Positions 1 through 12,437 of a stretch of DNA of 12,437 nucleotides are shown one piece after another (positions within the stretch are counted from its first letter, which is position 1; every line of letters starts with the position of its first letter). The stretch lies in the IMG/VR virus record IMGVR_UViG_2778261632_000004. One strand, 5' to 3'. Source of the stretch: a virus (lineage: Duplodnaviria > Heunggongvirae > Uroviricota > Caudoviricetes). The notes under the pieces are model-generated. The model saw only the letters and a program-made list of their open reading frames with translations, ran no database searches and was not told the DNA's origin. Made by a program: the position numbers and the translations under genes.

Positions 1-117
1 ATGGAAACAGAAAAAGGCAAACGCGGCCTTTTCTACATTTTCAGAGTAACTCCCGCCAGTTGCGAGCAAAAAAGCCGCTACGCTTTAGCTATACGTGCTA
101 ATTCAAGAGAAGAGACC

Positions 118-1050
118 ATGGACAACGACAAAATTGATCAACACAGCGACGAAATTGAAGTTGAGAGTGAAGAAAAAGAGCGTGGCAAAAAAATAGAAAT
201 AGATGAAGATCGACTCCCCTCCCGGGCGATGGCAATTCATGAGCATATCCGCCAGGATGGTGAAAAAGAGCTGGAACGCGACGCAATGGCACTACTGTGG
301 TCAGCCATTGCGGCGGGTCTGTCGATGGGCGCTTCATTACTGGCAAAAGGGATATTTCATGTCGAACTGGAAGGTGTGCCGGGCAGCTTCTTGCTGGAGA
401 ATCTCGGTTATACCTTTGGTTTTATTATCGTCATTATGGCCCGCCAGCAATTATTTACCGAAAACACCGTGACTGCGGTACTACCCGTCATGCAAAAACC
501 GACAATGAGCAACGTTGGCTTACTTATGCGGTTATGGGGCGTCGTGCTGCTGGGTAATATTCTCGGGACAGGTATTGCGGCGTGGGCATTTGAATATATG
601 CCTATCTTCAATGAAGAAACTCGCGATGCATTTGTCAAAATCGGCATGGATGTGATGAAGAACACCCCCAGCGAGATGTTTGCCAACGCGATCATTTCCG
701 GCTGGCTGATCGCCACTATGGTATGGATGTTTCCTGCAGCGGGTGCGGCAAAGATTGTGGTGATTATATTGATGACCTGGCTTATTGCCCTGGGTGACAC
801 CACTCACATCGTTGTCGGTTCTGTTGAAATCCTCTATCTGGTGTTTAACGGTACGCTGCACTGGAACGATTTCATCTGGCCCTTCGCACTACCTACTTTA
901 GCGGGGAACATCTGCGGCGGCACCTTTATCTTCGCGTTAATGAGTCATGCACAGATCCGTAACGACATGAGCAACAAGCGCAAAGCAGAAGCACGCCAAA
1001 AAGCAGAACGTGCGGAAAACATTAAGAAAAATGATAAAAACCCGGCATAA
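118..1050 (+). CDS. yfdC: Inner-membrane protein YfdC, formate/nitrite transporter (FNT) family; chromosomal flank
   Basis: Translation from the ATG at 118 (MDNDKIDQHSDEIEVESEEKERGKK...) matches my recollection of enterobacterial YfdC, about 310 aa with multiple hydrophobic helices. The supplied ORF reaches position 1 only because no in-frame stop precedes it. A purine-rich stretch lies just upstream of 118. Ordinary GC content. Confidence 0.85.
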   Translation: MDNDKIDQHSDEIEVESEEKERGKKIEIDEDRLPSRAMAIHEHIRQDGEKELERDAMALLWSAIAAGLSMGASLLAKGIFHVELEGVPGSFLLENLGYTFGFIIVIMARQQLFTENTVTAVLPVMQKPTMSNVGLLMRLWGVVLLGNILGTGIAAWAFEYMPIFNEETRDAFVKIGMDVMKNTPSEMFANAIISGWLIATMVWMFPAAGAAKIVVIILMTWLIALGDTTHIVVGSVEILYLVFNGTLHWNDFIWPFALPTLAGNICGGTFIFALMSHAQIRNDMSNKRKAEARQKAERAENIKKNDKNPA

Positions 1051-1125: not shown

Positions 1126-1200
1126 GTCCTCTTAGTTAAATGGATATAACGAGCCCCTCCTAAGGGCTAATTGCAGGTTCGATTCCTGCAGGGGACACTT
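1126..1200 (+). tRNA. argW: tRNA-Arg, anticodon CCU
   Basis: Cloverleaf folded by hand: acceptor stem GTCCTCT/AGGGGAC, D arm GTTA..TAAC, anticodon stem AGCCC/GGGCT with loop CTCCTAA (anticodon CCT), T arm GCAGG-TTCGATT-CCTGC, discriminator A at 1197. The 3' CCA is not fully encoded (genome reads A-C-T-T). Lies directly after yfdC, as at the known yfdC-argW locus. Confidence 0.85.
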
Positions 1201-1384
1201 TAAAGACCTTTCTCTACATTTCACTTCATTACATAACCACTTAAAAAAACAGCAAGTTATCACCGAATCGGCCTGATTTTCATTTCAGTTAATTTCATGA
1301 CATTACAACCTCGTGATGGTATAAGTGATGGTATTCCCCAGTTCGATATGCAGATACCATCAATTTACCAAAATGAGTACAGAT

Positions 1385-2659
1385 ATGGCCATTAATGTGC
1401 TTTCCCCCAAACAGATAGAAAACGCCAAGCCGAAGACCAATGATTACAAACTTACCGATGGAGGGAGTTTGTATCTACTGGTACGAAAGACTGGTGGAAA
1501 ATACTGGCGTATGAATTATCGTTTTGATGGAAAACAAGTGACATTGGCATTAGGGGTCTACCCAGATGTCTCACTTGCAACAGCGCGGAAACGGCGTGAT
1601 GAAGCCAGGCAACTACTAGCCGATGGTCGTGATCCTCGCGAAGCAAAGAAACCCAAAAAGGAAGACCCAATTTCCCCCACGTTCGAGAGTGTTGCCAGAG
1701 AGTGGCATAGTGGAACGATGGGGCATCCTGAGTGGAAAGAGATCACCCGTAAAAAAATTCTCCGAGAAATGGAAAACCACCTCTTTCCTGCCATCGGTTC
1801 AAAGCCTATCGATACGCTCAAAACCCGTGACTTGATGCCGATGCTGGTTGAGATGACTGAGAAAGGAATTGGTGCCACAACGAGCCGGGTAAAAACCACT
1901 ATGACGAGCATCTTCCGTTATGCCGTGCAACGTGGAATTGTCGATTACAACCCTGCCCACGATCTAAAAGGTGCAATTACGACCCCCAAAGTACGACATC
2001 GCCCCGCACTACCTCTCGAACGTTTACCTGAACTGTTAGCGAAAACGAGAAGTTACACGGGAAGACCATTGACTCGCCTAGCAGTTCTATTTTCCCTGCA
2101 CACTTTTGTGCGATCCAGCGAACTACGACATGCCAGATGGGAGGAGATCGACATTGAAAATGGGCTATGGACGATACCAGGACAACGTGAAGAGATCGCA
2201 GGGGTTAAATTCTCAGAGCGGGGTGCAAAGATGGGGGCTGCTCATTATGTCCCGCTATCTAGTCAGGCTATCGGGGTACTGGAGGATATAAGGAAAATCA
2301 GTGGTGAATATCTGCTGGTTTTCCCCGGTGACAGCAACCCATATAAACCGATGAGCGAAAACACAGTTAATAAAGCACTGCGAACGATGGGTTACGACAC
2401 TCAAAGTGATGTTTGCTTGCATGGGTTCAGGGCGATGGCCTGCTCTGCACTGACCGAATCAGGACTCTGGTCACGCGATGCAGTTGAACGGCAGATGAGT
2501 CACCAAGAAAGAAACGAAGTGCGGGCAGCATATGTGCATCTTGCGCAGCACATGCAGGAACGCCGCAGAATGATGCAATGGTGGTCTAATTATCTGGAAC
2601 TAAATAAGGACGAATTTCATGCTCCTTATGACTTATCAGGTATTAACATTATCAATTAA
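1385..2659 (+). CDS. int: Tyrosine-type site-specific integrase, P4 family
   Basis: N-terminus LSPKQIENAKPKTNDYKLTDGGSLYLLVRKTGGKYWRMNYRFDGKQVTLALGVYPDVSLATARKRRDEARQLLADGRDP follows the P4-integrase pattern (AKPK, DGGGLYL, KYWR, LALGVYP). The C-terminal catalytic region has the HGFRA box and a likely tyrosine nucleophile in VRAAYVH. Start is uncertain: in-frame alternatives at 1325 (GTG), 1328 and 1373; none has a strong SD. Confidence 0.9.
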   Translation: MAINVLSPKQIENAKPKTNDYKLTDGGSLYLLVRKTGGKYWRMNYRFDGKQVTLALGVYPDVSLATARKRRDEARQLLADGRDPREAKKPKKEDPISPTFESVAREWHSGTMGHPEWKEITRKKILREMENHLFPAIGSKPIDTLKTRDLMPMLVEMTEKGIGATTSRVKTTMTSIFRYAVQRGIVDYNPAHDLKGAITTPKVRHRPALPLERLPELLAKTRSYTGRPLTRLAVLFSLHTFVRSSELRHARWEEIDIENGLWTIPGQREEIAGVKFSERGAKMGAAHYVPLSSQAIGVLEDIRKISGEYLLVFPGDSNPYKPMSENTVNKALRTMGYDTQSDVCLHGFRAMACSALTESGLWSRDAVERQMSHQERNEVRAAYVHLAQHMQERRRMMQWWSNYLELNKDEFHAPYDLSGINIIN

Positions 2660-2689
2660 ATTTTCTTATAATTTAAAACAGAGGTCATA

Positions 2690-3571
2690 ATGCAGCATTC
2701 AAAAGAGAATGAAACTATATTCTTAGGAAATCTATGGATTGACAAAAAAATACCACCATTAGAATATTGTTCATTTGAACGCGCTTCAAGACTATTAGAA
2801 TGCGAGATTGATGATTTATTACACCTATACGAAATAGGCGCTTTTAATATCGCATTCAAGGCGGATGGACTTGCAGTTAGATTTAATGTTAATTTCCTCT
2901 ATAAAAATCAGAAAATGGAAATTGACTTAATTCATCCCGTATTAACTAATCAATCACTAGAGATGGAATTTTCAACAATATGGTATGACCTTAAAGATGA
3001 CTACTTTGAACATTTTGAAAATGGGCTTCAAATTATAGGATTTGCCTGTGGTATTTGGTACGCCGATGATATGATAAGTGACATAAAAAATGGATTAGCT
3101 ATAGATCCAGATTATGAATTCAGGCTTAAACCGGTAAAAATACGAGATAATGTTTTGATGGCAACGGCCTCATATGAAGGAAATAAGGTCATTGGTATTC
3201 CATTTGAAGATCTTCTTATCATGCGAAGAGATTTAGAGTTAATATGGAAATCAGTAAAAACTGGAATTCCTATGCCAAGTTTACTTACGAAAAGAATTTC
3301 ATCTGAACCTAAAATCCCCAAGCGATTAAATAACACTGCTGAGCATCATGCAAAAAATAGGGAGGGGTTATTAAATGCAGCCATATATATATTAGCAAAA
3401 TACCCAAGCGAATGTCGTGGTGAAAGAAAAGAGATAAGTCCTGAAAAGTGGACTAACGCCATAATTAAACATTTAGGAGAGCTACCTCCAATATTTATCA
3501 CTAATGAACAAGAAATCTTAAGAAAATTACGATTAGCGGTTAATCATGCGGGATTGAAACAAAAGGGGTAG
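2690..3571 (+). CDS. Hypothetical protein, 293 aa; AT-rich orphan cargo gene between int and alpA
   Basis: Clean ORF with GAGG SD 6-9 nt upstream of the ATG and only 30 nt after the int stop. Visibly lower GC than its neighbours. No motif I can recognise by eye. Confidence 0.7.
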   Translation: MQHSKENETIFLGNLWIDKKIPPLEYCSFERASRLLECEIDDLLHLYEIGAFNIAFKADGLAVRFNVNFLYKNQKMEIDLIHPVLTNQSLEMEFSTIWYDLKDDYFEHFENGLQIIGFACGIWYADDMISDIKNGLAIDPDYEFRLKPVKIRDNVLMATASYEGNKVIGIPFEDLLIMRRDLELIWKSVKTGIPMPSLLTKRISSEPKIPKRLNNTAEHHAKNREGLLNAAIYILAKYPSECRGERKEISPEKWTNAIIKHLGELPPIFITNEQEILRKLRLAVNHAGLKQKG

Positions 3572-3608
3572 ACTGAAACAATCTACAGGTAGAGTTGATT
3601 ACACTACC

Positions 3609-3637
3609 TTCACAGCATTTTGATATCCCCATAGTAT
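3609..3637 (+). promoter_or_regulatory. Putative sigma70 promoter for alpA (-35 TTCACA 3609..3614, 17-bp spacer, -10 TAGTAT 3632..3637)
   Basis: Hexamers and spacing read from the sequence; the predicted transcription start falls inside the adjacent palindrome. Confidence 0.35.
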
Positions 3638-3665
3638 CTGCCGTGTTCATTACATAACACGGCAG
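3638..3665. promoter_or_regulatory. Perfect 10-bp inverted repeat CTGCCGTGTT-N8-AACACGGCAG (operator or stem-loop) overlapping the alpA SD
   Basis: Exact reverse-complement arms at 3638..3647 and 3656..3665; the loop contains CATTACAT. Ends 8 nt before the alpA ATG, and the SD (AGGT, 3664..3667) overlaps the right arm. Confidence 0.45.
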
Positions 3666-3673
3666 GTAATTTC

Positions 3674-3889
3674 ATGACATTAAAAACTTATCCTATCACT
3701 GGACATGCCCGCCCACGAGCTACTGCTGACTTTTTGCAAATAAGTACGGTTACTCTCTGGCGCTGGGAAAAGAACAATCCTGAATTTCCCAAATCTATAC
3801 GCATTTCAAAACGGGTATCTGTTTACGATGCACAAGAAATTAGGCAGTGGGTTAAAGCTCAATCAGCAGGATTGGAGGAAGTAGTGTAA
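3674..3889 (+). CDS. alpA: AlpA/Vis-family helix-turn-helix regulator (phage excisionase/transcription factor type)
   Basis: 71 aa; FLQISTVTLWRWEKNNPEFPKSIRISKRVSVYDAQEIRQWV matches the AlpA/Vis signature (HTH followed by a hydrophobic-P-K-P-I-K-x-G-x-R-x-V-x-W recognition wing). Lies downstream of int, as in P4-like islands. Confidence 0.85.
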   Translation: MTLKTYPITGHARPRATADFLQISTVTLWRWEKNNPEFPKSIRISKRVSVYDAQEIRQWVKAQSAGLEEVV

Positions 3890-3908
3890 TGACAATATTA
3901 ACAAAGCT

Positions 3909-3928
3909 GGGGAGAAAAAAGCCTCCCC
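3909..3928. terminator. Putative bidirectional stem-loop terminator between alpA and the convergent minus-strand ORF
   Basis: GGGGAG-N8-CTCCCC hairpin (3909..3914 / 3923..3928), 20 nt after the alpA stop and 11 nt from the minus-strand ORF end. T-rich run on the minus-strand side (AGCTTTGTTAATATT); weaker U-tract on the + side. Confidence 0.45.
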
Positions 3929-3938
3929 AACGTATTAA

Positions 3939-4133
3939 TCAATTCTTTGGTTCTAAACCTCGGCTTTGTAACTCTTTGCGTAGAATGCGCTTGATCCAAG
4001 CCGCTAGCGATTCATCGCCATCCTGCTGTTGTGCTTGTTCCATCAGTTCACGCAGTTCAGGGTCAAGTCGGAACTGGAATGGCGGATTCCCACGTCTTTC
4101 ATTTTTGTGTGTTGACACGTCAATTACACCCAT
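3939..4133 (-). CDS. Small ribbon-helix-helix-like putative DNA-binding protein (64 aa)
   Basis: PPFQFRLDPELRELMEQ...ESLAAWIKRILRKEL fits an RHH (Arc/MetJ/CopG-like) beta-strand plus two helices pattern. Divergent from the kil-like operon. No obvious SD, so the call is tentative. Confidence 0.5.
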   Translation of the reverse strand: MGVIDVSTHKNERRGNPPFQFRLDPELRELMEQAQQQDGDESLAAWIKRILRKELQSRGLEPKN

Positions 4134-4166
4134 TGTAATGTATTTATGTGTAATGACACATTACAC
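4112..4166. promoter_or_regulatory. Divergent promoter/operator region: TTGACA -35 (4112..4117), candidate -10 TAATGT (4136..4141), and two TGTAATG/CATTACA palindromes
   Basis: Inverted repeat ATTACA-N5-TGTAAT (4123..4139) and perfect 8-bp-arm palindrome GTGTAATG-ACA-CATTACAC (4148..4166), all immediately upstream of the kil-like operon and overlapping the 5' end of the minus-strand RHH ORF. Confidence 0.45.
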
Positions 4167-4249
4167 ACAGAAAAACAAAATAGCAACGCCCCGGAGTGTT
4201 TGCAGCACCACCGAGGCGTCTGACCAGCACGTTATATGAGGTAACGAAG

Positions 4250-4426
4250 ATGGCTAAACAGAAGTGTACCTGGTTATTTGCGGCGATCAACCGCAGTCAA
4301 CGTAATGCCCGTCCGGTGATGTTAAGGATCACCGCAGATAACGAGCGATCAGCGCGGCGCAGACTTGCCCCGGACTATGTACTGAGCTTTGCCGGGCGCA
4401 TTCCCTGCGGAGGTGAACATGCGTAA
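4250..4426 (+). CDS. Small protein resembling Icd-like/Kil-type host cell-division inhibitors of P4-like elements (58 aa)
   Basis: Start chosen at the ATG at 4250, preceded by GAGGT SD. Sequence MAKQKCTWLFAAINRSQRNARPVMLRITADNERSARRRLAPDYVLSFAGRIP resembles, from memory, proteins annotated as Icd-like in P4-like islands. First gene of the operon ending in the primase, in the position of P4 kil. Confidence 0.55.
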   Translation: MAKQKCTWLFAAINRSQRNARPVMLRITADNERSARRRLAPDYVLSFAGRIPCGGEHA

Positions 4427-4778
4427 TTATCCGCATCCCGGCGAACGCTGGCAGCATGAACGTGGCTGGACGGTCACGATTATCCGATTAATAGAAGCCT
4501 CGCCCTCTGTGGCGCTGGTTAATCCTGAATTCAGCTGTGAAGTGCTGATACGTCATGACAGCGACAACCAGCTTTCTTCCTGCCCTCTGGCATGGTTTGA
4601 ACAGCGATATACGCGCCTGTTTGATGTACCGCTCTTTAAGCCTGCACCAGCTCCTGCAGGCGGTAGTGGTTCCGGCCCGCTGACACTGCATCCGTCTGTG
4701 CTATTTATCCGCTGGCGGGAGCGTAGCATATGGCGTTCTGCTGAGCCTGATGACGGTCACTATTCAAAGTTTCTCTGA
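4419..4778 (+). CDS. Hypothetical protein (119 aa), P4-like early operon
   Basis: Start at ATG 4419 with GGAGGTG SD; overlaps the previous gene by 8 nt (translational coupling). No recognisable motif. Confidence 0.6.
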   Translation: MRNYPHPGERWQHERGWTVTIIRLIEASPSVALVNPEFSCEVLIRHDSDNQLSSCPLAWFEQRYTRLFDVPLFKPAPAPAGGSGSGPLTLHPSVLFIRWRERSIWRSAEPDDGHYSKFL

Positions 4779-4809
4779 CAAAACACCGCTGAAAACGGAG
4801 TAATCCACA

Positions 4810-5094
4810 ATGAATATTTCAAACGGGCACAACGGTGCTCAGGGCCAGACTTTGCCTGAAAAACACAATACCGGTGCTTTTGCCTATGGGTTGTCAGAGG
4901 ACGGTTTCGGAAAGCTGACCCGCGCAAGAAATGCCTGCGACATGCTCCAGCTTCTCTTTTCTGAATACCCGTCTCAGGTCGGAGCACTGGACGCAGGCTG
5001 TGCGCCTGGTGTCGCCGCGCTGATGGAGTACCTGCGGGCAGATTTGACGGATATTGCACACAGCTGCGCACTGATTGAAGGAGGTGCCAGATGA
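4810..5094 (+). CDS. Hypothetical protein (94 aa); position and size compatible with a P4 epsilon-like protein, not demonstrated
   Basis: GGAG SD 9 nt upstream of the ATG; GC-rich codon usage like its neighbours. Confidence 0.6.
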   Translation: MNISNGHNGAQGQTLPEKHNTGAFAYGLSEDGFGKLTRARNACDMLQLLFSEYPSQVGALDAGCAPGVAALMEYLRADLTDIAHSCALIEGGAR

Positions 5095-5474
5095 ACCAGC
5101 CGCAGGTTTCCATTTTCCCGGCAGAAATGACCACCGCGCTTTACCGGCGGGCTATTGCTTCAGCATGGCGGCAGAAAATGCTGAACGAAACTGGCAATGA
5201 TCAGTATGGTCCGCACAGCCTGACGGTGGAGCGTATTGAAATGGCCATTGCGCTGCATATCGAGTGCGCACTGATTAACGAGTACGGCGAAGCACAGGGC
5301 GCCGCTGCCGCGCTGGCACTGCTAACTGACATGCTGGAGCCGTCACTGCTGACCGCGCCGCCGGTACTGACCGCGCGCGGTTGTGAAGTAATGGCGGAGA
5401 TGTACCGCACGCTTCCGGCGGCCTTTGATGTCTGCTGCAGTACCGGTGTGACGTTGTATCAGGGGGAAGTATGA
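5091..5474 (+). CDS. Hypothetical protein (127 aa) immediately upstream of the primase
   Basis: Strong SD GAAGGAGGTG; ATGA overlaps at both its start and its end, coupling it to the flanking genes. Confidence 0.65.
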   Translation: MNQPQVSIFPAEMTTALYRRAIASAWRQKMLNETGNDQYGPHSLTVERIEMAIALHIECALINEYGEAQGAAAALALLTDMLEPSLLTAPPVLTARGCEVMAEMYRTLPAAFDVCCSTGVTLYQGEV

Positions 5475-8143
5475 CAATACAGACGGTTACGCAGATTTCA
5501 GCCGCCGCACGGGGGAAATGGCCCGTTATTCTGCAGATGCTGCGTATTGATGTACCTGAAAACGGCAGGCATGGTCCCTGCCCGAAATGTGGGGGCAAGG
5601 ATCGTTTTCGCCTTGATGACCTTGACGGGCGCGGGACGTGGATCTGCAGCCAGTGTGGCAATGGTGACGGTCTGGATCTGGTTAAGCTCGTAACCGGTTA
5701 CAGCGTCAGAAAGGCTGCGCAGGAGGTGGCGCAGGTGCTTAATGTGCCGGATGTGCAGGAACTGCCTGTTAAGCCTGCCAGACAAAAAGCCCCTAAACGC
5801 GACATGGGTCTTACCGTGGCGGCGCTGATGAAAGAGAGCCACACGGGAGAAAGCGCCTATCTGACAGGAAAAGGGTTCGCCGGATACCCGGCCTCTCTGA
5901 CCGGAAGCGTGCAGCATATCAGCGGTAAGGATTTTCCTGCCGGTTCCCTGCTGTTACCACTCACGACCAACACCGGAGCCGTGACCGGTGCACAGCTTAT
6001 CGCCCCGACGGGTGAAAAAAGCATACTGCCCGGCAGCACGATGAAAGGCGCGTTTGTGTCGCTCAGCCCGTTACCGTCTGAACCACCGATACAGGTGGTG
6101 ATTACCGAAGGTTACGCTACGGCGCTGACGGTAAGCCAGCTCACTGCCGGATGCGTAGTGGCTGCCATATCTGCGGGCAACCTGCCCAATGTGGCGCAGT
6201 CGCTGCGGGCACGCTGGCCTGAGGTAAAAATTATCATCGCCGGTGATAACGATTTTCAGGATGGGGAGGAGAATCCCGGCAGAGCCTTTGCTGAACGGGC
6301 GGCAAAAGTTGTTGGCGGCTGGATGACGCTGCCACCAGGAGAGATTAAGGCTGACTGGAATGACTTTCATCGGGAGCACGGTATTACCCGTGCCCGTGAA
6401 GCCTTTCGCAACGGTCTGGTACTGTGCGGGGAAGGCCGCACGCAACTGCCGCACGGGTTCCGTCTTACCCAGGAATATCTCTGGTATGAAAAGCAGGTAC
6501 AGCGCAACGGTGAGACGGAGATCCAGAACGTCAAAATATGCAGCCCGCTGCGCGTGACGGCAATCACCTGCGATGCCGATGGCGGTAACTTCGGACGACT
6601 GCTGGAATGGGAAGATACGTGGGGTGAGCGTCGCCGCTGGGCGATGCCGATGGAAATGCTGAGCGGCAGTGGTGAGGAACTGCGCCGGGTACTGCTGGTT
6701 AACGGGCTGTCTTATATCAGCACCACCGGTGAGGCACGCGCACGCCTGATGGAATATATCTCACTGTGTAAACCGGAACGCCGCGTGACCTGCGTCAGCC
6801 GTACTGGCTGGCATGGTCAGGTTTACGTCCTGCAGGATGAGGTCAGCGGTGAAGGTGCAGAGGGTGTCATTCTCCAGACCACTTCCGTGCAGGGGCGTGA
6901 TTTCCGCGTGTCGGGCACAACAGAGGAATGGCGGGAGAACGTATCCCGCTACTGTACCGGCAACTCCCGCGTGGCATTTGCTGTCAGCCTGGCCTTTGCT
7001 GCACCACTGTTACGGCTGGTTGGTATGGACGGCGGCGGCTACCACCTCAAAGGGGAATCGACAGACGGTAAGACCACCACCATGAAAGCGGCAACCTCCG
7101 TCTGCGGCGGGCCTGACTACTGGCAGACATGGCGGGCCACCGGCAACGCGCTGGAGGGATGCGCCAGCCGCCGCAACGATGCCGCCATGATGCTTGATGA
7201 GATCCGGGAAGTTGACGGACGCGAGGCAGGCAATATCGCCTACATGCTGGCAAACGGTCAGGGCAAGGGCCGTGCCGGTACGGACGGTGAGCTGCGTACC
7301 CGTAAGCAGTGGCGCCTGTTGTTCTTTTCAACTGGCGAGTTGTCTCTGACCGAACATGCGGCAAAGGCCGGTGAGCGTACTTTTGCCGGGATGGAAGTCA
7401 GGATGATCCAGATCCCCAGCGATTCCGGGAAATTTGGCGTTTTTGAGGAGCTGCACGGCTTCGACAGCGGCAAGGCTCTGGCAGAGCATCTTGAATGGGC
7501 CACGTCCTGCTACTACGGTTCGCCGTTCCGGGAGTGGCTGAAAGCACTGACCGCTGATCTTAACGGACTAACGGCACAGGCAAAATCGCTGATGAAGGAA
7601 TATGCTGCCGCCCTGACTCCGAAAGATGCAGGCAACCAGGTGGGCCGGGCTGTGAATCGCTTTGCACTGGTGGCGATGGCGGGTGAACTGGCAACCCGTC
7701 TGGGTATCACCGGCTGGCCTGAGGGTGAAGCACTGCGGGCAACCCGCGTCTGCCTGAACGCATGGCTGAAAGATCGCGGGCACACCGCCAATCAGGAAGA
7801 TATTGCCGCACTGGAGCAGGTTCGTAGTTTCTTTACCGCGAATCAGTACAGCCGCTTTGCAGACTGGTATGACGAGCGCAACCGCCCCGGCAATATGGTG
7901 GGCTGGCGCAGGGTGGAGAAAGGCAGTACCGCGCAGGGCACGGAAGCTGTCACTACGTTCTATGTCATGCCGTCCGGCTGGAAAGAAATCTGCAGGGGAT
8001 TTGACCCGCGCAAGGTGGCTCGTCTGTGCGCAGATCGTGGATACCTGCTGCCCTCCACTGATGGCAAACTCCAGACAACCATTCGCCCGCCAGAGATGAA
8101 TCCCCGCAGGCTCTATGTCTTCAACAGCGAGGTGCCGGGTTAA
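5471..8143 (+). CDS. P4 alpha-like primase-helicase: N-terminal zinc ribbon, toprim primase domain, C-terminal P-loop NTPase (DUF927-type)
   Basis: 890 aa. Cys4 zinc-binding motif CPKCGG...CSQCG. Toprim signature residues in VVITEGYATAL (E) and IIIAGDNDF (DxD). Walker A GESTDGKTT and Walker B-like MMLDEI. Confidence 0.9.
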   Translation: MTIQTVTQISAAARGKWPVILQMLRIDVPENGRHGPCPKCGGKDRFRLDDLDGRGTWICSQCGNGDGLDLVKLVTGYSVRKAAQEVAQVLNVPDVQELPVKPARQKAPKRDMGLTVAALMKESHTGESAYLTGKGFAGYPASLTGSVQHISGKDFPAGSLLLPLTTNTGAVTGAQLIAPTGEKSILPGSTMKGAFVSLSPLPSEPPIQVVITEGYATALTVSQLTAGCVVAAISAGNLPNVAQSLRARWPEVKIIIAGDNDFQDGEENPGRAFAERAAKVVGGWMTLPPGEIKADWNDFHREHGITRAREAFRNGLVLCGEGRTQLPHGFRLTQEYLWYEKQVQRNGETEIQNVKICSPLRVTAITCDADGGNFGRLLEWEDTWGERRRWAMPMEMLSGSGEELRRVLLVNGLSYISTTGEARARLMEYISLCKPERRVTCVSRTGWHGQVYVLQDEVSGEGAEGVILQTTSVQGRDFRVSGTTEEWRENVSRYCTGNSRVAFAVSLAFAAPLLRLVGMDGGGYHLKGESTDGKTTTMKAATSVCGGPDYWQTWRATGNALEGCASRRNDAAMMLDEIREVDGREAGNIAYMLANGQGKGRAGTDGELRTRKQWRLLFFSTGELSLTEHAAKAGERTFAGMEVRMIQIPSDSGKFGVFEELHGFDSGKALAEHLEWATSCYYGSPFREWLKALTADLNGLTAQAKSLMKEYAAALTPKDAGNQVGRAVNRFALVAMAGELATRLGITGWPEGEALRATRVCLNAWLKDRGHTANQEDIAALEQVRSFFTANQYSRFADWYDERNRPGNMVGWRRVEKGSTAQGTEAVTTFYVMPSGWKEICRGFDPRKVARLCADRGYLLPSTDGKLQTTIRPPEMNPRRLYVFNSEVPG

Positions 8144-8170
8144 GGCTTTGCGTGAGTCTTATTTATTAAG

Positions 8171-8365
8171 GGTAACAGGTGAAACAGGTGGAACAACCGT
8201 ATTTTACAGGGCTGAACCTGTTCCACCTTCTGAAATAGTGAGGTGGAACAGATGTAACGCCAGCCAATCCGCTGTTCCACCTTGTTACCCGCGATGTTCC
8301 ACCGGTGCAGTGTATATAAGTGCTTTATAAAACAAAGCTGTAACACATGTTTCACCTGTTCCACC
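8171..8365. repeat. Iteron cluster: at least 8 copies of the 9-mer TGTTCCACC/GGTGGAACA (variant TGTTTCACC) in both orientations, plus an AT-rich tract; candidate ori/crr-like replication site
   Basis: Copies at 8178..8186 (variant), 8187..8195, 8219..8227, 8242..8250, 8273..8281, 8295..8303, 8348..8356 (variant), 8357..8365; degenerate GGTAACA/TGTTACC at 8171..8177 and 8283..8289. Arranged as inverted pairs and mirrored tandem pairs. AT-rich tract at 8311..8337. The motif is one base longer than the P4 type I iteron TGTTCACC bound by the alpha protein. Confidence 0.6.
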
Positions 8366-8453
8366 GCATCAGGGACATAAAGCAGACTGAAACTGAGGGC
8401 ATTTTTATCTGGCTGGCTTTCATAGCCACGTCTGAATAACCGCAAGCGCCCGT

Positions 8454-8509
8454 TGTGCCAGCCACCACACACTGAGCACCGATAGTGTGCTTGTGTCAGC
8501 CACGACACA
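8454..8509 (+). promoter_or_regulatory. Candidate Ogr/Delta-dependent late promoter upstream of sid (two TGT-N12-ACA dyads)
   Basis: TGT(8454..8456)-N12-ACA(8469..8471) and TGT(8492..8494)-N12-ACA(8507..8509), within 90 bp upstream of the Sid-like start codon. TGT-N12-ACA is the recognition pattern of P2 Ogr / P4 Delta activators. No good -35, as is typical of activator-dependent late promoters. Confidence 0.35.
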
Positions 8510-8543
8510 ATTGACGTAACGAACCAACCCGACAGGAGAAGCC

Positions 8544-9287
8544 ATGAACAACACCGCAGTGAATAACAACCTTTCCACTTTTCCGGCTGTAACGCAGCGG
8601 GCACTGGAAACCATGAACACAGCCAGAAACGCATGGCTTGAAGCACGTCGTCAGCAGAAAGCGGCAGCGGATAATATTGCGACAATCCGCCAGCGTCGCG
8701 CTGAGATGGAAGCCACGACGAACACACTGAATGAGGAGTGGCGCACGCTGTTTCGTGAAAGTCAGGGCGTGGTTTCAAAGGAAATGAAAAAACTGCGCAC
8801 GGAAATTGCGCTGGGACGAGAAACGCTTGAGGATTTTGATGAGCTGCTGGCGGCTCAGGAAAGCGAAAATGCACTTTTGCCGCAGAAAGCTGCGGAATTA
8901 GCCGGAAAGTATATCCACGCGCATAACATTCTTGTGGATATTCGCGCAAAACAAATCTGGGAAGATTTTATGCAATCGCATGGAAAAGCGCTTATTCAGA
9001 CGCTGAGCCTGCTTAAATCCACAATGGGCCGGGAAGCCAGTGCCGTTGTGGGTGTGGTGAATTCAGTTAATGACCCGGACACAGTGCTGAAAGACTTTAT
9101 TCATAAACATATCACCAGACCGGCTCTGGCTAACGATGCGATGCCTGAACAGGACCCGGTGTTTAAACTGGCGGGAATTGCCCCGGATTATGCGGCGCGT
9201 CTGGATTTCAGTAATCAACTCTCTCCGGCAGCTATGCATAAAATTAAGGTTCGTCAGGAACTTGCTGAGAAGGAGAAAGCAGTATGA
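8544..9287 (+). CDS. Sid-like capsid size-determination (external scaffold) protein, putative
   Basis: 247 aa (P4 Sid is about 244 aa), strongly helical and charged, with a strong AGGAG SD. First gene of a sid-psu-delta-type late operon directly before Psu-like and Ogr/Delta-like genes. Assigned by size, composition and synteny only. Confidence 0.55.
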   Translation: MNNTAVNNNLSTFPAVTQRALETMNTARNAWLEARRQQKAAADNIATIRQRRAEMEATTNTLNEEWRTLFRESQGVVSKEMKKLRTEIALGRETLEDFDELLAAQESENALLPQKAAELAGKYIHAHNILVDIRAKQIWEDFMQSHGKALIQTLSLLKSTMGREASAVVGVVNSVNDPDTVLKDFIHKHITRPALANDAMPEQDPVFKLAGIAPDYAARLDFSNQLSPAAMHKIKVRQELAEKEKAV

Positions 9288-9835
9288 CGGCCCGAGGCAC
9301 GCCTGACCAGGCACTTACCAGTTTTCGGAATGCCCGTATTCTGTGGGCCGGACATAGTGAGAGCCGAAAAGCCGTTGAACAACAGATAGCATCTCTCCTC
9401 GCTGCCACAGAAAAACCAGCAGATTATGCCCGACAGCTCGAATTACTGCGGGAACGTCTGGATGTGCTGAAATGGCAAATTAACTGTGCTGCGCGCGAAT
9501 GCATTTACTCGCAGCATTTACTGATGGAAGCCTGCACAGAAGCCGCTCTCAGCAATTTTATGCAGGCGAATGGAGCAGCCCTGACATCTGCACTGGCTCC
9601 GTTCCTGAAGGGGCGCGGAGGGGTTGACGTTGCGTCCCGTATATTACGCAGTGCTCTGGTTCGCCAGCTGACAATAACACCGCCTGAAATTGCCGGGGAT
9701 TATCGTGAGATCCTGGATGAATCCGGTTTGATGCCTGACCCCGGGATGATTCGTGATTGCCAGGGCTCTTACACCCCGGCACAACATCTGCGTTTTCAGC
9801 AACGCCTGAATGACATTAACGATATACAGGAGTGA
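9284..9835 (+). CDS. Psu-like (polarity suppression / capsid decoration) protein, putative
   Basis: 183 aa (P4 Psu is about 190 aa); AAGGAG SD; ATGA overlap with the Sid-like gene. Assigned by size and synteny between Sid-like and Delta-like genes, not by a recognised motif. Confidence 0.5.
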   Translation: MTARGTPDQALTSFRNARILWAGHSESRKAVEQQIASLLAATEKPADYARQLELLRERLDVLKWQINCAARECIYSQHLLMEACTEAALSNFMQANGAALTSALAPFLKGRGGVDVASRILRSALVRQLTITPPEIAGDYREILDESGLMPDPGMIRDCQGSYTPAQHLRFQQRLNDINDIQE

Positions 9836-9840
9836 TATTA

Positions 9841-10113
9841 ATGGCACTTAAATGTCCGGAATGCGGTACAGTTGCACACGCCAGAACAGCAGCCTATGAA
9901 GCTCCGTCAGTTAAACGCTCGTGGTATCAGTGCCAGAATCTGGAATGTTCCTGCACATTTACGGCACTGGAGAGTGTGGATAAGATAATCATGAAACCCC
10001 GACGCAATGAACAGCTATCAGACAAAGCACAATCCCCGGAAAAACAACAGCAAACACTTAATCGCTATGGCTCCGCGTCAAAACTGTCAAGCCGTCAGCA
10101 GATTCCTGTCTGA
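9841..10113 (+). CDS. Ogr/Delta-family zinc-finger late-gene transcriptional activator
   Basis: CPECGTVAHARTAAYEAPSVKRSWYQCQNLECSCTFTALESV closely parallels P2 Ogr (CPLCQHAAHARTSRY...YHQCQNVNCSATFITYESV): C-x2-C...C-x4-C zinc finger. Start at the ATG at 9841 with AGGAG SD; the supplied ORF begins at an upstream GTG that overlaps the Psu-like stop. Confidence 0.85.
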   Translation: MALKCPECGTVAHARTAAYEAPSVKRSWYQCQNLECSCTFTALESVDKIIMKPRRNEQLSDKAQSPEKQQQTLNRYGSASKLSSRQQIPV

Positions 10114-10134
10114 TTAGAAAGAACGCCCACGTAA

Positions 10135-10160
10135 TCCCGGTCCAGTACCGGGATTTTTTA
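10135..10160 (+). terminator. Rho-independent terminator ending the late operon
   Basis: TCCCGG-TCCAGTA-CCGGGA hairpin followed by TTTTTTAT, 22 nt after the delta stop codon. Confidence 0.6.
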
Positions 10161-10576
10161 TCCCCTTTTCCTGGCTGGCATGAGAGCGAATGAGTGCATG
10201 TCTATGGCGCATGAAAACGCATGAGTCTTATGCACCATTTTTGACGAGAAAACCCTTGTTTGGTGGCTTCTGAGACGATTTATGAGGTGCATGAAAACCA
10301 GTCTGTTAAGCGAAGCGGGCAGGCGGGCGGGGCTGTGCGTGCCGTAGGGTAATTTCGAATAAACTGTAGCAGTGCTATTTGACGTCCAACAACTTAAACA
10401 AAACCATTTTATATCCATTAACAATGGAATCTTAATTAGATTCACGATAATAACATAGGTACATTATTTCAAAAGCAATCTAAAACACTGTATTCAACAG
10501 GGTTGTTGAACAAGTTTCACTCAAAAAAATATTTCACACAATGGAAAAAGCCTTTAATTTTAACAAGTTAATTTAT

Positions 10577-10604
10577 TTGCGTAAGTAAAAAATAAAGATA
10601 TAAT
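10577..10604 (+). promoter_or_regulatory. Putative sigma70 promoter for the cargo operon (-35 TTGCGT 10577..10582, 16-bp spacer, -10 TATAAT 10599..10604)
   Basis: Consensus -10 and near-consensus -35 in an AT-rich leader about 95 bp upstream of the first cargo gene. A perfect inverted repeat TTCAACA-GGG-TGTTGAA at about 10493..10509 lies further upstream. Confidence 0.45.
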
Positions 10605-10698
10605 CATATGTAACTTAGCGCAAAACTTAGGCATTAAAGTGTCTTAAGCAATTTTGAGTTACATTGTCAATATAACAAATTAGACATGGAGTCCTTCA

Positions 10699-11805
10699 AT
10701 GGCCGAATGTATTATCTTAAATATGGATTTAAATGCAAATTGCTGGGTAGTAAGGCCTGGAAGAGATTATGAATTCTTTGGTCATTTTCTCCATGGAAAG
10801 GTTGCAGCAATAGGGCATTTTGACGACTTTATTACTAATGATGGTCCAATAAGTGAAGACGATTTTGAAAGTCTAATGCATGAATATTATGTTGATGCCG
10901 CAAAAAAAGGCTATTCTCAGCAGATCATTAGCGCTAACGTTAACCAAGTTAAAAAATTCCTCTTCAATATGAATGTTGGTGATTTGATTTTCACTATAGG
11001 TTCAGGAGTCGTTGTTGCTGGAATAATAACATCAGACGCTTATTGTTCTGATGAAGTTATCAACTATAATATCGATGACAAAATATCCAAGGATCTTGAT
11101 TTTAAAATTAGACGTGATGTTACATGGGGCCGCTCTTATAACCGTGAAAACATACCTGATGCAGTAAAGCGCTCTTTTAAAGCCAACCAGACTGTTTTTT
11201 CTTCAGCTGAGCATCTGAGATCGATTTATCATTGGTTAAATACCGTATTTATCAGTGACGGAACCGTTTATTCAAGTTCTCGCATAAACCAAGAAGATGA
11301 TATCCATCATTACTCAGTAACTAAATATGCAGAGGTTTTGAATAAATTAGAGGCTTTAGCAACATTAGTTGAAGATAAGTTCAATGAAAATACATTTGAC
11401 TCTTCTATTAGTCTCGATGATATCAAAAAGCAGTTATCTCTTCTCGCCAGCAATGATTTATTAAATCTTACTACTCAGCAATCATTTATGTCCCCTGGTG
11501 ATTACTGGACGGGGTTTACAGGTAAGACCAGGGTTTCCGTAATTGCTTTTACTATCGCTATATGTGAACTTCTCAGTGTAACCCCAACATTTGCAGATCA
11601 GCAAGATATTGAAATAGCAAATCAGATTGCAGTTCCAATTAAGCTAGCTGTACATGAAATAAAGAATGATAATGATATGGAAGTTGTTATCAAAAAACTT
11701 GAACTGGCAATGCCTATGCAGAATAAAAAAGTTATTGAGACTATTAAAAAAATTAGTGATAGTGAATTTCCAGAAGTTGAAGATTCGAATAAAGGTACAA
11801 GATAA
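10699..11805 (+). CDS. Hypothetical protein, 368 aa, no predicted TM segment; cargo gene A in the satellite variable slot
   Basis: AT-rich ORF with GGAG SD 7 nt upstream. The N-terminal about 150 aa is beta-rich (CWVVRPGRDYEFFG..., NMNVGDLIFTIGSGVVVAGIITSDAY..., DFKIRRDVTWG); the C-terminal half is helical. No catalytic motif recognisable by eye. Confidence 0.7.
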   Translation: MAECIILNMDLNANCWVVRPGRDYEFFGHFLHGKVAAIGHFDDFITNDGPISEDDFESLMHEYYVDAAKKGYSQQIISANVNQVKKFLFNMNVGDLIFTIGSGVVVAGIITSDAYCSDEVINYNIDDKISKDLDFKIRRDVTWGRSYNRENIPDAVKRSFKANQTVFSSAEHLRSIYHWLNTVFISDGTVYSSSRINQEDDIHHYSVTKYAEVLNKLEALATLVEDKFNENTFDSSISLDDIKKQLSLLASNDLLNLTTQQSFMSPGDYWTGFTGKTRVSVIAFTIAICELLSVTPTFADQQDIEIANQIAVPIKLAVHEIKNDNDMEVVIKKLELAMPMQNKKVIETIKKISDSEFPEVEDSNKGTR

Positions 11806-12437
11806 TGACGTTAAGAAGCAAAGCTAAATCCTGCGGAATTTTCCTGGGAAAATGCATTTGTTTCCCATTCAAAGAACACCAAGCGACTTATAATATAATT
11901 ATTGCAGTTGTTACTGCCCTAACGTTAGTTTGGGCAGCAATGACATACCACTTGTTGGATCAAAGAGAAAGAGCTAGGACAGAGCTTTATGAAATTAAGG
12001 AAAGAATAAAAAACTCCGAATCAACAACTGTAACCTTAAACACTGTATTCACTTCAGACACTGATAATGGATACTACATCTACCCAACAGTAACTATAAA
12101 AAATGTTGGTAAGGAAAAAGTTTCTTTATTCTTAGATGACGATGCATTAACAATAAAGAGAGTATATTTAAAAAATGATAAAATAATTGCTAAGGAATCC
12201 TATACGCCAAATTTCTATGAAACCATATCATCTGACCCATCAATTAAAAATACAAGATTTCGAATAATGGAAATTCCGGTTGATGGGGAAAGAAAAATTC
12301 CATATGCCGTAAAGGTAGATAGTAAGGGTGTGTATTATATAACATTTTCAGCTAAACCGTATGATAAAAAGTCTGAGCGAAAAATAAAAAACCATGAGTT
12401 AGTATGGTTTGCAGCAGAATACAAGGACATCAGATAG
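11805..12437 (+). CDS. Hypothetical membrane-anchored protein, 210 aa, single N-terminal TM helix; cargo gene B
   Basis: Start overlaps the gene A stop (TAATG). Hydrophobic segment IIIAVVTALTLVWAAMTY after a short basic N-terminus, then a beta-rich domain. The stop codon coincides with the last 3 nt of the window. Confidence 0.7.
   Translation: MTLRSKAKSCGIFLGKCICFPFKEHQATYNIIIAVVTALTLVWAAMTYHLLDQRERARTELYEIKERIKNSESTTVTLNTVFTSDTDNGYYIYPTVTIKNVGKEKVSLFLDDDALTIKRVYLKNDKIIAKESYTPNFYETISSDPSIKNTRFRIMEIPVDGERKIPYAVKVDSKGVYYITFSAKPYDKKSERKIKNHELVWFAAEYKDIR

Follow-up and report, generated by a model that had tools for sequence, protein, structure and literature searches.

A candidate nuclease-free anti-phage gene pair with a predicted PUA-like reader and a membrane-anchored partner in the cargo slot of a P4-like satellite

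Introduction

Readers of modified bases from the PUA superfamily are known in bacterial immunity chiefly for directing nucleases to their targets. A second role was described very recently, in which they sense methylated mononucleotides and thereby switch on enzymes. Here we describe a gene pair, A and B, at positions 10699-12437 of the virus record IMGVR_UViG_2778261632_000004. The whole stretch of DNA that was analysed (12,437 nucleotides, referred to below as the window) is an Escherichia coli chromosomal segment with a P4-like satellite integrated at argW. Judged from its sequence and from structure prediction, the pair is a good candidate for a nuclease-free anti-phage system.

Type IV restriction enzymes carry EVE/YTH readers, such as that of the EVE-HNH enzyme VcaM4I and the N-terminal domains of McrB. 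Protein A differs from these enzymes, as it has neither a nuclease nor a McrBC-type NTPase. It also differs from the readers themselves: it has no similarity to the Pfam EVE and YTH profiles, it carries a two-helix insertion, and its partner is a membrane protein. Another relative is PDC-S02, a candidate family in PADLOC, whose profiles match the N-terminal ∼160 residues of A. The C-terminal half is different, however, and PDC-S02 is defined as one gene, in contrast to A with its obligate partner. PDC-S02 is itself unvalidated.

Two recent preprints report that PUA-like domains of the E. coli defence systems Metis and PUA-Cal-HAD sense free N6-methyl-deoxyadenosine monophosphate (m6dAMP) released by phage-induced genome degradation. 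Metis consists of MisA (PUA-calcineurin) and MisB (HAD). Type II Metis uses a transmembrane effector and consists of MisC, with three transmembrane helices, and MisB. Like A-B, these systems are two-gene cassettes of E. coli mobile-element hotspots. In them a PUA-like pocket, or the transmembrane effector of type II, senses the modified nucleotide and infection is aborted. They provide the best functional analogy for A-B, which may work in a similar way. However, no calcineurin-like, MazG or HAD domain was found in A, in B or in the rest of the slot, and therefore A-B is not a member of either system. It also has no homology to the system of HAD plus transmembrane protein. In type II Metis it is the transmembrane protein that binds the ligand.

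RexAB and Kiwa, from a prophage or a defence island, pair a soluble nucleic-acid-binding sensor with a membrane component. A-B would share this logic of a cytoplasmic sensor and a membrane component. In contrast to these systems, A-B matches none of the PADLOC models for RexAB or Kiwa, and B has one helix and an Ig-like domain instead of being a multi-pass channel-like protein.

The P4 psu-int and P2 gpA-gpQ hotspots were described by Rousset et al. 2022, and A-B has the same position and the same turnover as the cargo described there. An earlier note on this DNA, written from the letters alone and called here the sequence-only reading, had pointed to a published survey that places diverse anti-phage cargo in this region; this is indeed the hotspot of that study. 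Table S1 of Rousset et al. 2022 lists the exact pair, WP_000175420 + WP_000796678, as 'hypothetical + hypothetical'. The two accessions appear in no other text supplementary file of that study, nor in a 2026 follow-up preprint. According to the preprint, 8 P4 hotspot loci without a known function were picked at random, and 6 of them protected against phages. None of the P4 systems newly named in it (Crouga, Bandua, Aernus, Toga, Reve and Hailong) resembles A-B. Literature searches on the accessions, on DUF8426 and on EVE with transmembrane defence gave no description of the pair. Neither the EVE census nor the PUA-Cal-HAD effector-fusion survey nor the P2/P4 hotspot papers describe a PUA-like reader whose sole partner is a membrane protein. 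The text of the EVE census never uses the word 'transmembrane', and its five uses of 'membrane' are all on other matters. The pair has been catalogued already but is uncharacterised, one of many unknown cargo cassettes of these hotspots.

Results

Both open reading frames (ORFs) called by the sequence-only reading stand, with 368 codons for A and 210 for B, and together they make 1.74 kb of coding sequence. The stop codon of A (TAA, 11803-11805) has one base in common with the ATG of B (ATAATG), which is the overlap that had been called. When A and B were compared with their copies in Mixta and Serratia, the proportion of nonsynonymous differences (pN) was 0.14-0.18 and that of synonymous differences (pS) was 0.75-0.79, with synonymous sites saturated. 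As judged from these values, A and B are genuine genes and both are under purifying selection.

The region that holds the pair is a swapped cargo slot of the P4 psu/delta-cos hotspot. A probe of psu-delta-cos (window 9284-10420) was compared by megablast with 5426 complete E. coli genomes. It matched in 850 of them, and nearly all matches end at query positions 1052-1059, which correspond to window 10335-10342. The A-B cassette is present in only 7 of the 5426 genomes, in all of them at ≥99.9% identity. Three other satellites carry different occupants in the slot: a retron St85 pair, a pair of an AAA ATPase and an S8 peptidase, and an ABC-three-component (ABC-3C) system. A four-way alignment of satellites diverges right after a cos-like GC-rich motif, ...GGCAGGCGNGCGGGGCTG. 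A-B sits between psu/delta-cos and the int/att end of the element, and the content of this slot differs between otherwise related satellites, as the sequence-only reading had expected of a swapped slot.

The GC content is 0.332 in the cargo (10343-12437) compared with 0.552 in the backbone (4200-10340). The sharp drop in GC noted earlier is thus real. However, it does not lie directly after the delta terminator but ∼190 bp later, near 10340, past the conserved cos-proximal stretch.

Strain FAM21845 carries an identical element, in which A and B are the final genes. Its attR is a 21-bp repeat of the 3′ end of the tRNA-Arg and lies 282 bp past the stop codon of B, with dsdC next. Since the window ends exactly at the stop codon of B, the cassette is complete within the window. 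A and B are the sole cargo between the end of the cos-proximal backbone (∼10340) and attR.

Gene A is preceded by an AT-rich leader of 356 nt that matches no known RNA family in Rfam at gathering thresholds. The sequence-only reading placed a consensus-like promoter here. The −10 box is a perfect TATAAT and is kept, together with the block near the ribosome-binding site, in the Mixta copy. The −35 box (TTGCGT), however, is weak, and a scan for consensus promoters called no site on the + strand upstream of gene A. The number of promoter-like sites in the region, 10, shows no excess over the 10.8 expected from shuffles. From its letters, a promoter upstream of gene A is plausible but unproven.

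A word-indexed search found 31 homologues of gene A. An exhaustive profile search gave 1358 cluster representatives at E≤1e-3, mostly of 340-400 residues and with full-length matches. Protein A has no match in Pfam or NCBIfam, in line with the earlier statement that it shows no assignable motif. That statement does not hold for other collections: A matches phrog_10226, a family of unknown function, and its residues 14-195 match four PADLOC PDC-S02 profiles (E 1e-11 to 4e-5, best 1.2e-11). The PDC-S02 match covers profile positions 3-167 of 299-346, so A is not a full-length member. The same was seen across the family. The N-domain matches PDC-S02 in 84 of 86 diverse members, with matches ending at profile position 150-205 of 299-346. 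In a few of them there is a further match, to an internal part of a type II restriction-enzyme profile. Precomputed labels of DUF8426 (PF28530), marked '(weak)', are found on homologues 30-56% identical to A, and none is recorded for the cluster of A itself. The pair had been put forward as a candidate novel system. It is uncharacterised, but relatives of A already carry a Pfam number, DUF8426, and the N-domain of A is common to the PADLOC candidate PDC-S02. Neither A nor B matches a characterised system or a housekeeping family in Pfam, NCBIfam, PADLOC, PHROGs or the Protein Data Bank (PDB).

An AlphaFold2 model of A has a predicted local distance difference test score (pLDDT) of 87 and a predicted template modelling score (pTM) of 0.81. 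In this model the N-terminal domain adopts an EVE/YTH-like reader fold of the PUA-like superfamily, which agrees with the resemblance that the sequence-only reading had guessed from pattern. The best structural match of the model is VcaM4I, through its EVE domain. The structural neighbours are readers of modified bases in DNA (VcaM4I, McrB-N, THYN1) or RNA (YTH). Ten residues of the N-domain are conserved across the 86 sequences: W16, R19, F30, H40, Q83, F87, D95, G108, R138 and W143. Five of them (W16, H40, D95, R138 and W143) may line a putative base-binding pocket.

The C-terminal alpha/beta domain of A carries a near-invariant loop, in which S265 and G267 are the only invariant residues of the domain. 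No catalytic constellation was recognised in it. It matches nothing in Pfam or the PDB and no nuclease, and none of its structural neighbours is convincing. Neither an HNH, PD-(D/E)xK or GIY-YIG nuclease nor a McrBC-type NTPase is joined to the reader, as would be the case in a type IV restriction enzyme. Residues 279-299 form a hydrophobic stretch that was considered as a transmembrane helix and rejected. It reaches transmembrane grade in only 24 of the 68 relatives retaining the MSPG motif, and the model buries it as a core helix with pLDDT above 90. Protein A is best regarded as soluble, as first proposed, on its hydrophobicity profile and model.

Gene B has 21 homologues in the word-indexed search, on contigs shared with homologues of A. 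Its model (pLDDT 78) contains a continuous helix of residues 26-70 that holds the sole hydrophobic stretch. Behind a charged stalk the model continues as a beta-sandwich of residues 74-209. This fits the single N-terminal transmembrane helix assigned to B by the sequence-only reading, and the hydrophobic character of the helix is kept in all partners. No PADLOC defence-family model matches B; below threshold there are matches to ArlF (E 0.041) and DUF6558_C. In the window protein the 26-residue N-terminal tail has five lysine or arginine residues, while the flanks of the helix are balanced in charge in other homologues. The B protein of the Rop plasmid-like contig described below (L005/L006/L007) has an extra N-terminal hydrophobic helix, and its topology would differ.

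The two genes are neighbours in ∼18 lineages, even where identity has fallen to 30%. In every locus with downstream DNA, B lies directly 3′ of A, even at 30-35% identity, with a gap of −14 to +19 nt. The partner proteins are homologous to B (blastp 1e-21 to 1e-48, 25-35% identity). The pairing of a soluble protein with a membrane partner, on which the sequence-only reading had built its sensor and effector logic, is thus conserved.

The pair recurs in several kinds of mobile element. P4-like satellites from four genera carry it; in those of Mixta, Serratia and Yersinia it again comes right behind delta, and in one IMG/VR P4-like element it lies between int and psu. On nine IMG/VR contigs a P2-type gpA is found shortly upstream of the pair. 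One of these, L022, has the order gpA, A-B, portal, terminase, gpO, and the pair there occupies the P2 gpA-gpQ hotspot. In P2-like prophages the pair lies between an S24 repressor (cI) and int. It is also found on D5-primase/AlpA islands and on a ColE1-type Rop plasmid-like contig of 5.7 kb (5709 bp). In Vibrio harveyi (locus L002, 6979-12988) A and B are flanked by an rve fragment, by HEPN_AbiV, HEPN RiboL-PSP and OST-HTH genes, and by a gene for a 739-residue protein without a family; these surroundings look like a small defence island. A profile search of genome contigs gave one locus only, which is distant.

Pseudomonas sp. NCCP-436 (locus L011, 5914-7774) encodes a distant A-like protein of 416 residues with 27% identity. 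Its gene overlaps the next one, which encodes an unrelated 213-residue protein with about three hydrophobic helices in place of the B homologue. Here the partner appears to have been swapped, yet from its hydrophobicity it is still a membrane protein.

A different arrangement was seen at locus L016 (72-1388), where a 438-residue A-like protein with a long E/K-rich C-terminal extension, probably a coiled coil, is encoded without a partner gene and beside an integrase.

The coordinates of all features are given in Table 1. The order of the element is tRNA-Arg attL, int, alpha, sid/psu, delta, cos-proximal region, A, B and attR. With Rfam at gathering thresholds, the tRNA-Arg(CCU) is the only hit in the whole window, and there is none in the regulatory region 3570-4400. 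The AT-rich ORF next to the integrase has no Pfam, PADLOC or NCBIfam match. At its position related satellites carry other hypothetical genes (L008, 251-889; L009, 4976-5800), a hint of a second variable slot on the int side. In NZ_CP017220, ogr/delta carries a RefSeq flag for a frameshift; yet the ORF is identical at 89 of 90 positions to the intact delta of satellite L008, and from this comparison the flag looks like an annotation artefact. A Serratia satellite (L032) has a colicin-immunity-like gene and a gene of 571 codons between alpha and sid (2537-4521), and a microcin-like ORF downstream of B (9076-9414). These extra genes may be further cargo slots of that satellite lineage.

Table 1. 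Features of the window. Coordinates are window positions; residues (aa) are numbered within each protein.
Feature	Coordinates	Strand	Remarks
yfdC	1-1050		E. coli chromosomal gene
tRNA-Arg(CCU) argW	1126-1198		attL side of satellite
Integrase	1325-2659		Satellite gene
AT-rich ORF	2690-3571	+	293 aa; GC 0.34; directly 3′ of integrase
Alpha primase	5471-8143		Satellite gene
Two Psu/Sid-type genes	8544-9287 and 9284-9835		
ogr/delta	9832-10113		
Intrinsic terminator	10133-10155	+	9-pair stem, then T-run; end of satellite late operon; kept in related satellites; outside cassette
Conserved cos-proximal backbone end	10160-10342		Homology to other satellites stops at ∼10335-10342
AT-rich cargo leader	10343-10698	+	GC 0.28-0.30
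Putative promoter	−35 10577-10582; −10 10599-10604		TTGCGT (weak) and TATAAT (perfect); 16-nt spacer
Shine-Dalgarno GGAG	10688-10691	+	7 nt ahead of gene A ATG
Gene A	10699-11805	+	368 aa; relatives carry weak DUF8426 labels; proposed sensor
Gene A N-terminal domain	10699-11298	+	∼aa 1-200; predicted EVE/YTH-like PUA-superfamily fold with two-helix insertion (aa 53-90)
Gene A C-terminal alpha/beta domain	11299-11802	+	aa 201-368; LTTQQxFMSPGDYW loop near-invariant (MSPG at 11488-11499); buried hydrophobic helix aa 278-291
Gene B	11805-12437	+	210 aa; proposed membrane-anchored partner
Gene B hydrophobic helix	11883-11957	+	aa 27-51; predicted single transmembrane segment; Kyte-Doolittle 19-residue mean 1.86
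Gene B charged helical stalk	11958-12023	+	aa 52-73; length differs between homologues
Gene B C-terminal Ig-like/CARDB-like beta-sandwich	12024-12434	+	aa 74-210; predicted fold

Discussion

A has a reader-type fold without a nuclease, and it is obligately coupled to a membrane partner, which in one distant Pseudomonas relative is replaced by an unrelated protein with several hydrophobic helices. The simplest reading is therefore a sensor (A) with a membrane output (B). We consider the chances that A-B serves defence, with a PUA-like sensor and a membrane-bound partner, to be evenly balanced. In its favour are the slot, which elsewhere holds known or predicted defence systems, the recurrence of the pair in the P2 and P4 hotspots and beside HEPN genes, the strict pairing, the N-domain in common with PDC-S02, and the protection given by most of the P4 loci in the 2026 preprint. 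The sequence-only reading had named two findings that would speak against it and that can be looked for by computation: confident homology of both proteins to known systems or housekeeping proteins, and conservation of the cassette at the same position in all related satellites. Neither was found, and the parts of that reading that computation can probe held up.

In this sensor-and-output reading, A and B would form a mobile two-gene module against phages or other mobile elements, carried as swappable satellite cargo. A would be cytoplasmic, and its N-terminal EVE/YTH-like domain would read a modified nucleotide. The ligand could be a modified base in incoming phage DNA, as for the reader domains of type IV restriction. 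It could also be a free modified mononucleotide from phage degradation of the host chromosome, as for Metis and PUA-Cal-HAD. No nuclease is present in A; the task of the conserved alpha/beta domain at its C-terminus would instead be to couple it to B. Translational coupling would keep B in a fixed ratio with A, and one helix would anchor B in the inner membrane, followed by the stalk and the Ig-like domain. Ligand binding would switch the A-B complex, and B would then perturb the membrane (abortive infection) or block a membrane-associated step of infection. We infer the defence function, the ligand, the contact between A and B, the direction of the signal and its outcome, as well as which of the two proteins senses and which one acts.

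The specific chain from a modified nucleotide through A to membrane damage by B is doubtful in our view. A-B could also be the founding member of an immune module of 'restriction without cleavage', in which an EVE/YTH-like reader detects a modified nucleotide, either in hypermodified phage DNA or as methylated mononucleotides from breakdown of the host genome. A new adaptor domain would pass the signal on to a bitopic membrane protein with an Ig domain, and this protein would kill or close the cell. In such a module the reader would be conserved and the membrane partner exchangeable, as in the Pseudomonas relative. We hold this to be unlikely.

Several results weigh against a PUA-like sensor with a membrane output. 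The EVE/YTH assignment of A comes from one AlphaFold2 model. A Foldseek search against the PDB gave one weak YTH match (E 0.023) and otherwise noise. Among the 86 family members there is no match to Pfam EVE, YTH or ASCH at E≤0.5, and A has no sequence match in the PDB. For B, counting charges gives no clear topology. If the Ig-like domain is periplasmic, as it may be, only the 26-residue tail and the membrane helix would remain for contact with A. This domain is a generic fold and has no pore-forming signature. The partner swap in Pseudomonas is a single case. With A as the query, tblastn gave no match in deposited phage genomes or in PLSDB plasmids. Finally, the sole PDC-S02 representative that has been tested was not among the systems protecting against T4, T5 or T7, and only its N-domain is common with A.

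Other explanations would fit part of the data. The pair could act by superinfection exclusion at the envelope, where a periplasmic Ig-like domain of B would block DNA injection or a receptor-proximal step. A would then be accessory or regulatory, and its PUA-like domain would not be a sensor of modified bases. The positive charges in the N-terminal tail of B favour an N-in/C-out topology, and sandwiches of the CARDB, RbmA and TMEM106B types are typically extracytoplasmic. The weak ArlF-like match of B and the position between cI and int, which fits expression in the lysogen, point the same way. However, the flank charges of other B homologues do not share this bias. Exclusion also leaves unexplained why a 368-residue reader-fold protein with invariant W/H/D/R is constantly co-inherited with B, and exclusion, where it is known, usually relies on one small membrane protein. 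Taken together, exclusion seems quite unlikely to us. It is improbable, too, that the pair is an addiction module of the toxin-antitoxin type, with B a membrane toxin restrained by A and selected because it stabilises the carrier element and not for antiviral activity. The sizes of the proteins and the reader-type domain are atypical for antitoxins, and the pair is mostly found in integrated satellites and prophages, where swapping of cargo changes the content of the site. What such a module would explain is the tight, translationally coupled operon and the presence of the pair on the Rop plasmid-like contig. In the view of Rousset et al. 2022, the canonical genes of the P4 hotspot may themselves form a toxin-antitoxin system that works through abortive infection, and an addiction module is compatible with abortive-infection defence.

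The pair may also be cargo outside immunity, for example a factor in helper-satellite interaction or in lysogenic conversion of the envelope. It is found in both P2-like helpers and P4-like satellites and so could act in their mutual conflict, and two of the eight unknown P4 loci in the 2026 preprint gave no protection. Yet the pair also occurs outside P2 and P4, namely in the Vibrio island beside HEPN Abi genes, on primase islands and on a plasmid. In addition, its N-domain is common to PADLOC families gathered from defence islands and to a restriction-enzyme profile. We see little probability in a role of this kind. Least probable of all, and hardly to be expected, is a cryptic type IV restriction enzyme, in which the C-terminal domain of A would be an unrecognised nuclease that cuts modified DNA and B would only localise A. 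The structural match to an EVE-HNH enzyme, made through the EVE domain, and the restriction-enzyme profile that contains the N-domain would suit such an enzyme, but the C-terminal domain itself resembles no nuclease.

If the pair proves inactive or unrelated to defence, it would be one more catalogued hypothetical pair among hundreds in the P2/P4 hotspots. As a small cassette that recurs in the hotspots of both P2 and P4, it is directly testable in E. coli. The family is large, and a result on A-B would give a handle on PDC-S02. If the sensor-and-output reading is true, a reader coupled only to a membrane protein would be a third output for the PUA-superfamily class of sensors, beside nucleases and enzymes switched on by methylated mononucleotides.

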